A stretch of DNA of 43,691 nt from Diploschistes diacapsis (lineage: Eukaryota): assembly GCA_023645945.1 (NCBI GenBank), contig JALAIB010000033.1, positions 1-43,691 on the forward strand, written 5' to 3'. Made by a program: the position numbers and the translations under genes. The notes below the pieces were generated by a model. It did no database searches and had not been told where the DNA came from. It was given only the letters and a program-made list of their open reading frames with translations. This document shows positions 30,056-31,530 of the stretch, one piece after another (the first letter of the stretch is position 1; each line of letters opens with the position of its first letter).

Positions 30056-30916
30056 CTACCCGGCGTAGGACGTTGTCTGCCCGTACAGAACCTGTGTGAT
30101 GGCCGAAATGTATGCCGAGTGATCCTGATTGTTCAGGCCGTACGTCATGTAGGCGCCGCAACCTTGCGATATAGTATTCTGCGCGAACGAGACGGCATCG
30201 CTCTGTGGCGTACTTCCGAAATCCACCGCGGCCGGGGACAGTCCGGAATTGCTCAGGCCGGGGACGGACGGTGTTTGGTAGGTGTCGTAGAAGGCGTTCC
30301 ACGCGTAGTTCAGCTGCGAGCCGACCGAAGCGGGCGAGGACGACAGGCTCTGCGACGCAGGGCCAGAGTTGAAGAAGGTGATGAGCTTGCCCCCCAACTG
30401 CTCGCGCAGGGCCGTGATCAACCAGCCGATCGACGAGCCGTTTGGCTGCGGCGTGCCGTTCGTACCGTAGTCGGCATATTCGTCGTCTAGATCTACGCCG
30501 TCCAGCCCGTACTGGTTCACCGTGGCGGCCACCTGGCTCGCAAAGTCCGCCGCGGCCGCCTGTGAGGCGAAGTTCGAGATACCCGCTCCCTCGTGGTTGC
30601 CTAGGATGGCCAGGAGCACCTTGATGCCTTTCTGCTGCAGCGAAACGATCTCGTTGGCGGCATTGTCCAGCGTCGCCTGCACCTTCGGGTTGTTGTAGAG
30701 CACGGCAGCCGTTCCGTTGTAGTTGATGTTCGCGGCAAAGATGATGCCGATGTCGAATGCAACGGAGCCGTCGGCCGTCCTGTAGTCCCCAACGTTCGTG
30801 ATTGCGTTAGTGTTGACCTCCACATAGGCGACAAGCGTCGGGCCAGATTTCGCTGCAGTGGTGGACAGTAACGCAGCAGTGGCTACCAAGGCCAGTGACG
30901 GGGTGTGCAATCTCAT
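30056..30916 (-). CDS. Secreted GH18 endo-beta-N-acetylglucosaminidase, bacterial Endo H-like, 286 aa, intronless
   Basis: Signal peptide MRLHTPSLALVATAALLSTTAA. Endo H-family blocks AYVEVN, AFD.GIIFAANIN, LQQKGIKVLL.ILGNH.GAG, catalytic YGLDGVDLDDEY (DxxDxDxE), YAWN..Y, LSPAAV and T.VLYG. Good fungal start context CAACTACC-ATG. Confidence 0.93.
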   Translation of the reverse strand: MRLHTPSLALVATAALLSTTAAKSGPTLVAYVEVNTNAITNVGDYRTADGSVAFDIGIIFAANINYNGTAAVLYNNPKVQATLDNAANEIVSLQQKGIKVLLAILGNHEGAGISNFASQAAAADFASQVAATVNQYGLDGVDLDDEYADYGTNGTPQPNGSSIGWLITALREQLGGKLITFFNSGPASQSLSSSPASVGSQLNYAWNAFYDTYQTPSVPGLSNSGLSPAAVDFGSTPQSDAVSFAQNTISQGCGAYMTYGLNNQDHSAYISAITQVLYGQTTSYAG

Positions 30917-31530
30917 GGTAGTTGAGCTTGGGTATATTCTGAGGATCAGGAATGTCTTGTATGATGTGGTTGGGTGAGAGTGAGCTGTTCTGGAATCGCT
31001 GACAATGCAGAGGTCCCGGCTCCTATATAAGTGTATAGATCTTCATATATCTACAAGAACCTCAATGTAACCTACCGCGGCATCTGTTGCCCAAACCACT
31101 GGCACACCGATATTTCAGGCACGCACCAAGACTAGTAAGCAGCACATCACAACATCGACCCCAAGTTTCCGCCCCTGCAATTAGCAGGATATTGCGCTGC
31201 TGCTGCACTGGCGCTGGCTCCGGAGCCTAAGATTGCGTCTGCTCGCTAAGTCCCTTCAGGGTTAGCGATCGCTGCTGGTGCTGACAGAAGCCCATCAGCT
31301 GTTGAGGGATTGGAGAACGAAACCGGTCGTCTAACCCAAAGCAGATCCGTTTATGGAGGAACTTTTGTTATGAACTTGTGAGGTTTGAAACCAGGAACAA
31401 GTCCAAAACGTCTAGGGGCTGCGCTAACAGAGTCGCCGATTGTTAGGGCTGACCGTTGAACCATGTTTGGCAAGATTAACGACTAATCGATCGGCCCAAT
31501 AATAGATCAGTGTTAATTCTTCCTAACTTT

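Follow-up and report, generated by a model that had tools for sequence, protein, structure and literature searches.

The stretch of DNA analysed here (the window) comprises 43,691 nucleotides of Diploschistes diacapsis, positions 1 to 43,691 of the forward strand of contig JALAIB010000033.1 in assembly GCA_023645945.1. It carries an intronless gene for an endo-beta-N-acetylglucosaminidase (ENGase) of the Endo H type, a member of glycoside hydrolase family 18 (GH18). Very probably this gene is of actinobacterial Endo H descent, is resident in a lichen fungus from which its product is predicted to be secreted, and belongs to an older fungal clade. Because the protein is one of 22 in a eukaryote-type clade that share a signal peptide, the step from bacterium to fungus would predate this species. 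Endo H is a standard laboratory tool for the removal of high-mannose N-glycans and is regarded as a bacterial enzyme.

Family, fold and catalytic residues

By family, fold and catalytic residues, the product of the open reading frame (ORF; Table 1) is a classical Endo H-type GH18 enzyme, its activity being predicted from sequence and model. It scores 42.8 bits against Pfam PF00704 (GH18; cut-off 29.6) and 351.9 bits against the NCBIfam equivalog NF045482, Endoglyc_H (cut-off 300), the latter alignment covering positions 2-267 of the 267 in the model and residues 22-284 of the protein. The best matches in a sequence search of the PDB were ten entries for Endo H of Streptomyces plicatus (E 1e-79 to 1e-80, with 1EDT/6VE1 at 1e-80), followed by Bacteroides BT1285 (1e-41 to 1e-43), Endo F1 (1e-31) and EndoBT-3987. 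With E values of 1e-80 to 1e-105 in the PDB and NCBIfam searches, the similarity is beyond chance. Since residues 22-280 of the product align colinearly to bacterial Endo H and only three gaps, each of one or two residues, interrupt the alignment, the ORF can be taken to lack an intron.

An AlphaFold model made from a 44-sequence alignment has a mean predicted local distance difference test (pLDDT) score of 93.3; residues 1-20 reach only 52-54 and the rest lie above 90. Foldseek matches the model to 6VE1/1EDT with template modelling (TM) scores of 0.89-0.96 and a root-mean-square deviation of 1.4-1.5 Å over 265-268 columns at 50-52% identity, and the next fold matches are again BT1285, Endo F1 and EndoBT-3987. 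Structures of Endo H D130/E132 mutants rank among the best fold matches, and the residues that align with this pair in the window protein are D144 and E146, within a motif that fits DxxDxDxE. D139, G140, D142, D144, D145 and E146 are invariant in the 44-sequence alignment, the motif is intact in 21 of the 21 aligned fungal-clade members, and the full-length ORF retains all 39 of the 39 invariant family columns, which were defined with the window sequence included. Endo T (4AC1) is absent from the 36 PDB sequence matches at E <= 0.001 and from the 46 fold-match chains listed (ranks 1-49, of at least 500).

The region 5' of the gene has a eukaryotic look. The ATG is preceded by a fungal start context, and no purine-rich stretch of the Shine-Dalgarno type (GGAGG-like) was seen directly 5' of it. 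The 766-bp intergenic region that separates the gene from a divergent PPWD1-type gene contains a TATA-like element, and the intergenic stretches on both sides of the ORF are non-coding at 48-49% GC. A preliminary description of the window, made from its letters, had proposed an intronless 286-residue ORF at this place with a signal peptide, an intact catalytic motif, a fungal start context and a TATA-like element, between housekeeping genes for a RhoGEF and PPWD1; it had also likened the protein to Endo H and Endo-Fsp and set it apart from native EndoT-type ENGases. All of these points are borne out, the signal peptide as a prediction and the two flanking genes by their Pfam domains.

Relatives and probable bacterial origin

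A homologue search returned 2,179 matches, and the counts that follow are from the best 120. Twenty-two proteins, the window's included, have eukaryote-type N-termini and 98 are of bacterial type. The N-terminus is 18-29 residues long in 17 of the 22; two of the rest are truncated, and the gene model of another is too long. Organism names accompany only three of the 22, all from metagenome-assembled genomes (MAGs) of Trypetheliaceae lichens: Trypethelium eluteriae (74% identity, on a contig of 11.8 kb), Bogoriella megaspora (71%, 72 kb) and Bathelium mastoideum (71%, 1.66 Mb). Twelve fungal-type Endo H proteins that were compared are 56-79% identical to one another. The bacterial matches are mostly from Curtobacterium, at 58-68% identity. 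The enzyme of 'Flavobacterium sp. SK1022' (Endo-Fsp, P0073) is 65% identical to the window protein and at least 93% identical to the Curtobacterium-type protein P0072. Across 185,579 prokaryote species genomes (one per species), three Curtobacterium loci stand at 66-68% and Catenulispora comes next at 58%. The Endo H-type family as a whole has 316 confirmed loci in these genomes, spread over Actinomycetota and Bacteroidota, and 766 representative clusters were found at E <= 0.001.

Two trees were made. The quick tree started from 170 proteins, less 7 fragments, and merging of rows at least 93% identical left 96 rows; in it the 22 eukaryote-type proteins form one clade (SH-aLRT, the Shimodaira-Hasegawa-like approximate likelihood ratio test, 99) that is sister to a 27-row Curtobacterium-type clade (87). 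The careful tree has 81 chosen rows (the 22 eukaryote-type proteins, 30 bacterial proteins and 29 translated loci) and unites the 22 with Curtobacterium, Actinoplanes-type, P0115, P0121 and L005 in a clade with 100/100 support, which sits inside further clades of Actinomycetota and Bacteroidota. The preliminary description had inferred acquisition from a high-GC bacterium. This nesting upholds a bacterial source, whereas direct uptake by the present genome does not stand, the gene being one of 22 in an older fungal clade.

It is very unlikely that the gene represents a native, vertically inherited fungal GH18 lineage, or that transfer ran from fungi to Curtobacterium. The fungal clade is admittedly more diverse than the Curtobacterium clade (end branches of 0.05-0.85 against 0-0.19), and the sister relation of the two is weakly supported in the careful tree. 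However, the family is broadly bacterial, the fungal clade lies several nodes deep inside bacterial clades, the named fungal members among the best 120 matches come from one family only, and the bacterial gene stands in an N-glycan operon context (see below).

Among 79 loci from a scan of JGI metagenomes none is of fungal type; the best partial matches, L025 and L068 (69-71%), were rejected as fungal orthologues, their ORFs being open in many frames over the whole length, like high-GC bacterial DNA. Ten clusters of deeper relatives that were looked up gave no fungal names, the organism names returned being bacterial only (Klebsiella, Arenicella). Two Ascomycota clusters in the ESM Atlas, with 72 and 58 members of about 300 residues and no common Pfam family, are perhaps further fungal relatives or Endo T-like proteins.

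Signal peptide and composition

The first 22 residues are predicted to form a eukaryote-type signal peptide, and the enzyme would be secreted after its cleavage. They are hydrophobic, residues 7-17 having a Kyte-Doolittle mean of 2.28 where residues 23-60 have 0.33, and stop exactly where mature bacterial Endo H starts (KSGPT). Pre-sequences of the Curtobacterium type are 36-64 residues long and often include a His/Gly-rich linker, against 22 residues in the fungal type. Among nine fungal-type proteins the 22-residue signal peptides have a mean identity of 47% (36 pairs), the mature parts one of 74%. The signal peptides of P0003 and P0004 (Bogoriella) match that of the window protein at 71-76%, a level that equals the identity of the mature domain; the signal peptide of its tree sister, P0010, matches at 29%. 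Because the fungal-type proteins share a 22-residue signal peptide unlike the bacterial pre-sequences, it is suggested that the gene entered fungi a single time and spread afterwards.

The GC content at third codon positions (GC3) had been called high in the preliminary description. At 0.794 it is the highest of the 13 window ORFs measured, the other 12 ranging from 0.51 to 0.73, and the excess is genuine yet moderate. Compared with the same 12 neighbours, the synonymous choices of the gene favour NCG and CTG codons (GCG/GCC, CCG, ACG, TCG and CTG). Three Curtobacterium genes have a GC3 of 0.973-0.977, against 0.79-0.81 for the window gene in that comparison. In blastn, identity to the Curtobacterium genes is 70-72% and confined to 30065-30865 (codons 18-284), with no DNA similarity to them upstream of 30865. 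Bacterial DNA that might have travelled with the gene was sought by comparing 68 six-frame peptides of the flanks with six Curtobacterium-type loci; none scored E < 0.02, and the best (0.026) is noise. Judged by these comparisons, it is only the ORF that was taken over from the bacterium.

If this species had taken the gene directly and recently from a Curtobacterium-like bacterium of the thallus, several of these results would be accounted for: Curtobacterium is the closest bacterial genus (66-68% protein and 70-72% DNA identity), the GC3 is still raised with NCG and CTG codons preferred, and relatives appear to be without the gene at this locus. Such an event is nevertheless highly improbable. 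The protein groups with the 21 other eukaryote-type proteins (SH-aLRT 97-99) and outside the Curtobacterium clade (99-100), and it has the 22-residue signal peptide in common with them. The DNA diverges by 30% from any Curtobacterium gene, GC3 has gone from 0.97 to 0.79, and the gene is present with the same flanks in two further runs, X2 and X3, at a divergence equal to that of the flanking genes.

Residence in a fungal genome

The Endo H ORF is best explained as a nuclear gene that resides in the genome of a lichen-forming ascomycete, and its linkage to PPWD1 is confirmed outside the original assembly. Run X1, a lichen metagenome that is probably the window's source, contains 98% of the sampled words of 28600-31800, and its Logan re-assembly yields one 14,124-bp contig over 29583-34500, with 0 substitutions and 1 gap letter, in which the ORF is joined to PPWD1. 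Of the words sampled from this interval, 33% occur in run X2, which belongs to another study. A 1,219-bp contig of X2 spans 30023-31222 and so contains the complete ORF with 300 bp of its promoter, at a depth of 89.5, the flanking contigs having depths of 71.5-86.9; it differs from the window at 31 of about 1,200 letters, and three flanking-gene contigs differ at 33/1255, 27/1345 and 26/1948. Run X3, a rock metagenome from a third study, has a depth of 1.3-3.6 and covers all four bins across the ORF. Since the Logan pieces of X1 and X2 break at a C12 run (29594-29605), the junction on the RhoGEF side is carried by the window assembly together with an overlap of 16 bp. Of the linkage to both fungal flanks drawn in the preliminary description, the PPWD1 side is thus secured by the 14,124-bp contig and the RhoGEF side is given by the window assembly only. 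In X1 a short dispersed repeat at 29286-29334 joins to other contigs.

That the gene is an assembly chimera or bacterial contamination is scarcely credible. The source is a lichen metagenome, the Logan unitigs do break at the C12 run, and in the pieces listed the RhoGEF side is bridged by no more than the 16-bp overlap. On the other side, an independent assembler linked the ORF to PPWD1, and X2 has the ORF together with non-coding promoter sequence in a single contig whose depth is like that of the fungal flanks. The DNA on either side of the ORF is non-coding, with 48% GC and no bacterial similarity, the N-terminus is of eukaryote type, and relatives stand on fungal MAG contigs, the longest of 1.66 Mb.

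The flanking genes indicate what kind of fungus this is. PPWD1 orthologues of fungi are 63-84% identical overall; the best relatives are metagenome proteins (71-84%) and the best named ones are from lichen fungi. For RhoGEF, all named proteins among the best 120 matches are from Lecanoromycetes. No Trypetheliales protein occurs among the best 120 matches of either gene. A PPWD1 tree made from 38 selected rows unites the window with seven metagenome proteins (SH-aLRT 99) and leaves it outside the clade of the Lecanoromycetes sampled. An assignment to Ostropomycetidae, suggested by the identity of the best matches, was dropped on account of this tree. The fungus may come from a lichen lineage that has no named proteins in the collection searched.

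History of the locus

Relatives of RhoGEF and of PPWD1 share six contig sizes: 19947, 38612, 40548, 50927, 177423 and 202913 bp (P0272-P0282, P0391-P0413). As these exact sizes are shared, the two genes are likely to be linked in several related lichen fungi. The contigs that carry the 21 other eukaryote-type Endo H proteins have none of the six sizes, and because the RhoGEF-PPWD1 contigs of the relatives show no Endo H, its distribution appears patchy; this suggests that the other carriers hold the gene at other locations. In two Xylographa genomes RhoGEF and PPWD1 are 9-10 locus tags apart, and in the window only the Endo H gene lies between them. Orthologues at the syntenic position in many classes, forming a vertically inherited clade, were what the preliminary description had named as contrary to transfer; the fungal clade found here appears to be patchy and not syntenic.

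By what route could the gene have come to this place? One possible but doubtful course is a single transfer from bacterium to fungus followed by moves from fungus to fungus, with a late arrival between RhoGEF and PPWD1 instead of vertical descent with losses. Five proteins of the window's PPWD1 clade (71-84%) lie on contigs of 177423, 19947, 38612, 40548 and 50927 bp, sizes that recur for RhoGEF relatives and in none of the 21 other Endo H proteins. The nearest named Endo H relatives (70-74%) belong to Trypetheliaceae, which are Dothideomycetes, and Trypetheliales are absent from the flank-gene matches described above; the likeness of the signal peptide to those of Bogoriella points the same way. 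However, tree paths between the query and Trypetheliaceae (about 0.85 changes per column) equal those between Trypetheliaceae and Curtobacterium, and so deep a split is compatible with a long vertical inheritance in which the gene was lost in places and changed its site. The low signal-peptide identity to the tree sister P0010 also speaks against a late arrival, as does the want of any transposon end or repeat boundary beside the ORF, around which there are only short chance-level repeats and a microsatellite. This microsatellite, of the (GGTGAG)n type, is at 28995-29036.

The X2 copy adds a further complication. One base of the G6 run is missing there, with the deletion at a depth of 89.5/89.5; in silico this shifts the frame at codon 174 and brings a stop at residue 202 of 286. 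Since four listed indels sum to all 23 gap letters of the X2 contig, nothing within the ORF compensates for the shift, and the allele of this close relative may be a pseudogene. Could the window copy, too, be an unexpressed or decaying relic that has no present function? The truncation in X2 and the apparently patchy distribution would fit this, but I consider it unlikely: the window ORF is full length with every invariant column kept, model confidence is high over the whole barrel, neither the start context nor the TATA-like element is disrupted, and the catalytic motif is kept in all aligned members of the fungal clade.

A bolder proposal is that an actinobacterial Endo H gene moves horizontally among unrelated lichen fungi, Trypetheliaceae and the window's lineage among them, is kept where it serves the symbiosis and decays elsewhere, as in X2. 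This is speculative, and rather improbable on present evidence. If true, it would make the gene a mobile, lifestyle-linked 'lichen' gene and not an ordinary old relic of horizontal transfer, with a symbiotic use such as the stripping of high-mannose N-glycans from surface glycoproteins of photobiont or fungus at the contact zone.

Several observations weigh against the preferred reading, that of an actinobacterial gene long resident in lichen fungi. Of the 21 other eukaryote-type proteins, three have a fungal name and the other 18 were taken as fungal from the form of the N-terminus alone. In the careful tree the monophyly of the 22 has 68% ultrafast bootstrap support (SH-aLRT 99) and appears in 70% of 200 bootstrap trees, and the sister relation of the fungal clade to Curtobacterium has only 58/27; with support this low, neither the exact donor nor the number of entries is fixed. 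The Ascomycota clusters of the ESM Atlas, with feature scores of 0.93-0.94, may indicate that the gene is more widespread in fungi. A codon bias linked to expression can likewise raise GC3, and one neighbour reaches 0.73. That relatives apparently lack Endo H between RhoGEF and PPWD1 was read from equal contig sizes only. The PPWD1 tree, which puts the window outside the sampled Lecanoromycetes, and the RhoGEF matches, which are Lecanoromycetes, disagree on the class of the fungus. The X2 relative, about 97% identical, is frameshifted, so the gene may be dispensable or decaying in the species group. Finally, no RNA run is among the runs listed for the Endo H stretch.

Neighbouring genes and other features of the window

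Pfam domains were found in 10 of the 12 other window ORFs scanned and are mostly typical of eukaryotes: RhoGEF, WD40, cyclophilin, telomerase RNA-binding and reverse transcriptase domains, eIF2A, SWIB, RabGAP-TBC and SBE2. The PPWD1 gene is split over two frames, and an intron is therefore implied. The telomerase reverse transcriptase exon or exons (Telomerase_RBD and RVT_1, 3113-5550, minus strand) support the eukaryotic nature of the contig. The window also encodes a P-type ATPase and a non-ribosomal peptide synthetase (NRPS). The NRPS ORF (10505-21340, plus strand) is uninterrupted over 3,611 residues, with four condensation, two AMP-binding and three PP-binding stretches, and has the lowest GC3 measured (0.51).

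Table 1. Positions of the Endo H-type gene, its parts and signals, and the two flanking genes in the window
Feature	Position	Strand	Details	Basis
Intronless coding sequence, GH18 Endo H-type endo-beta-N-acetylglucosaminidase, predicted secreted	30056..30916	-	286 codons + TAG; ATG start	ORF list, Pfam, NCBIfam, PDB
Eukaryote-type signal peptide (predicted)	30851..30916	-	codons 1-22, MRLHTPSLALVATAALLSTTAA; predicted cleavage before K23	
Mature enzyme, (beta/alpha)8 GH18 barrel of Endo H type	30059..30850	-	residues 23-286	AlphaFold model, Foldseek, blastn
Catalytic motif DGVDLDDE	30479..30502	-	D139-G-V-D142-L-D144-D145-E146; fits DxxDxDxE	alignment to Endo H
G6 run	30390..30395	-	codons 174-176; one base absent in run X2	
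Start-codon context	30917..30924	-	CAACTACC; abuts ATG at 30916; A at -3	read from sequence
TATA-like element (function putative)	31023..31030	-	TTATATAG; 107-114 nt 5' of ATG	read from sequence
RhoGEF, flanking fungal gene	23782..28638	-	main exon, 1618 residues	PF00621, E 8e-35
PPWD1-type gene, divergent from Endo H gene	31683..33594	+	at least two exons	WD40 PF00400 (31683-32219), cyclophilin PF00160 (32170-33591)

Proposed mechanism and role

I infer the activity, substrate and biological role of the enzyme, as well as the timing and route of the gene's spread, along the following lines. An actinobacterial Endo H gene of the lineage that includes Curtobacterium/'Endo-Fsp' and Actinoplanes-type proteins would have entered fungi once, and would then have gained a short signal peptide of eukaryotic type as well as signals for expression in fungi. 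Today it would have a scattered occurrence in lichen-forming fungi, among them Trypetheliaceae and the window's lineage; in the species group of the latter it lies between RhoGEF and PPWD1. Endo H and its nearest relatives act on high-mannose and hybrid glycans. Once its signal peptide had been cut before K23, the fungal enzyme would, by analogy with the family, bind extracellular N-glycans of these kinds on glycoproteins and cleave the GlcNAc-beta1,4-GlcNAc core (GlcNAc, N-acetylglucosamine) by substrate-assisted catalysis, leaving one GlcNAc on the protein. E146 would act as the acid/base, and D144 would position the 2-acetamido group of the substrate. In the account of GH18 ENGases by Stals et al. 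(2012, PMC3408457), a Glu protonates the core glycosidic oxygen and an Asp orients the acetamido nucleophile of the substrate.

A putative role is the stripping or harvesting of mannose-rich N-glycans from fungal, algal or other glycoproteins of the thallus. In Curtobacterium sp. SP.BCo (locus L080:381-6792) genes for a GH38 alpha-mannosidase and an ABC permease immediately precede the Endo H gene on the same strand. This gene order fits N-glycan harvesting, and the locus looks like an N-glycan utilisation operon. The lichen gene is a candidate for glycoprotein processing inside the thallus.

Comparison with known systems

With Endo H of S. plicatus the window protein shares the single-domain barrel, the catalytic D/E pair, the mature length and the NCBIfam equivalog. 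It differs in being encoded by a fungal genome, in having a 22-residue eukaryote-type signal peptide where S. plicatus has a long bacterial one, and by a divergence of about 50%. The Curtobacterium enzymes, Endo-Fsp included, are the closest bacterial relatives among the matches listed and fall in the same clade at 100/100. Their long bacterial pre-sequence, GC3 of 0.97 and GH38 and permease neighbours are all missing in the fungus.

In full-text literature searches, no account of Endo H-type genes in lichen-forming fungi came up. In a 2026 preprint on carbohydrate-active enzymes of lichen fungi, 'GH18' and 'horizontal' are absent from the main text, and the portion consulted of a paper on the Cladonia rangiformis metagenome describes two transfers, both old, from bacteria to the fungus and does not mention GH18. 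The classical Endo H subfamily would now be present in eukaryotes, as a resident and apparently secreted enzyme, and as far as named matches go in lichen-forming fungi only. These are naturally eukaryote-adapted Endo H variants and may express well in fungal hosts.

Endo T of Hypocrea jecorina (4AC1) catalyses the same reaction with a high-mannose specificity nearly identical to that of Endo H, and its barrel is complete, whereas Endo H is without helices alpha5 and alpha6, according to Stals et al. (2012, PMC3408457). Compared with this native fungal enzyme and the B-V group, the window protein has the same catalytic D/E geometry and, in the PDB search at E <= 0.001, no detectable sequence likeness.

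Transfer of a bacterial GH18 ENGase into fungi has already been published. Goughenour et al. (2021, PMC8042737) report bacterial GH18 genes in Hypocreales, among them an ENGase of insect pathogens that is fucose-specific in Cordyceps militaris. The type of event is the same, a bacterial GH18 ENGase gene in a Pezizomycotina lineage with a particular lifestyle. However, Endo-CoM (6KPL, 6KPM and 6KPN) matches the present model with TM scores of only 0.52-0.55 at 16-17% identity, on ranks 28-43, which places it in another subfamily. The recipients differ as well: insect pathogens with a likely core-fucosylated substrate in Hypocreales, and here a lichen fungus for which high-mannose glycans are likely. 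The window gene is a case of another subfamily in other recipients, and adds a second subfamily to the published transfers of bacterial GH18 ENGases into fungi.

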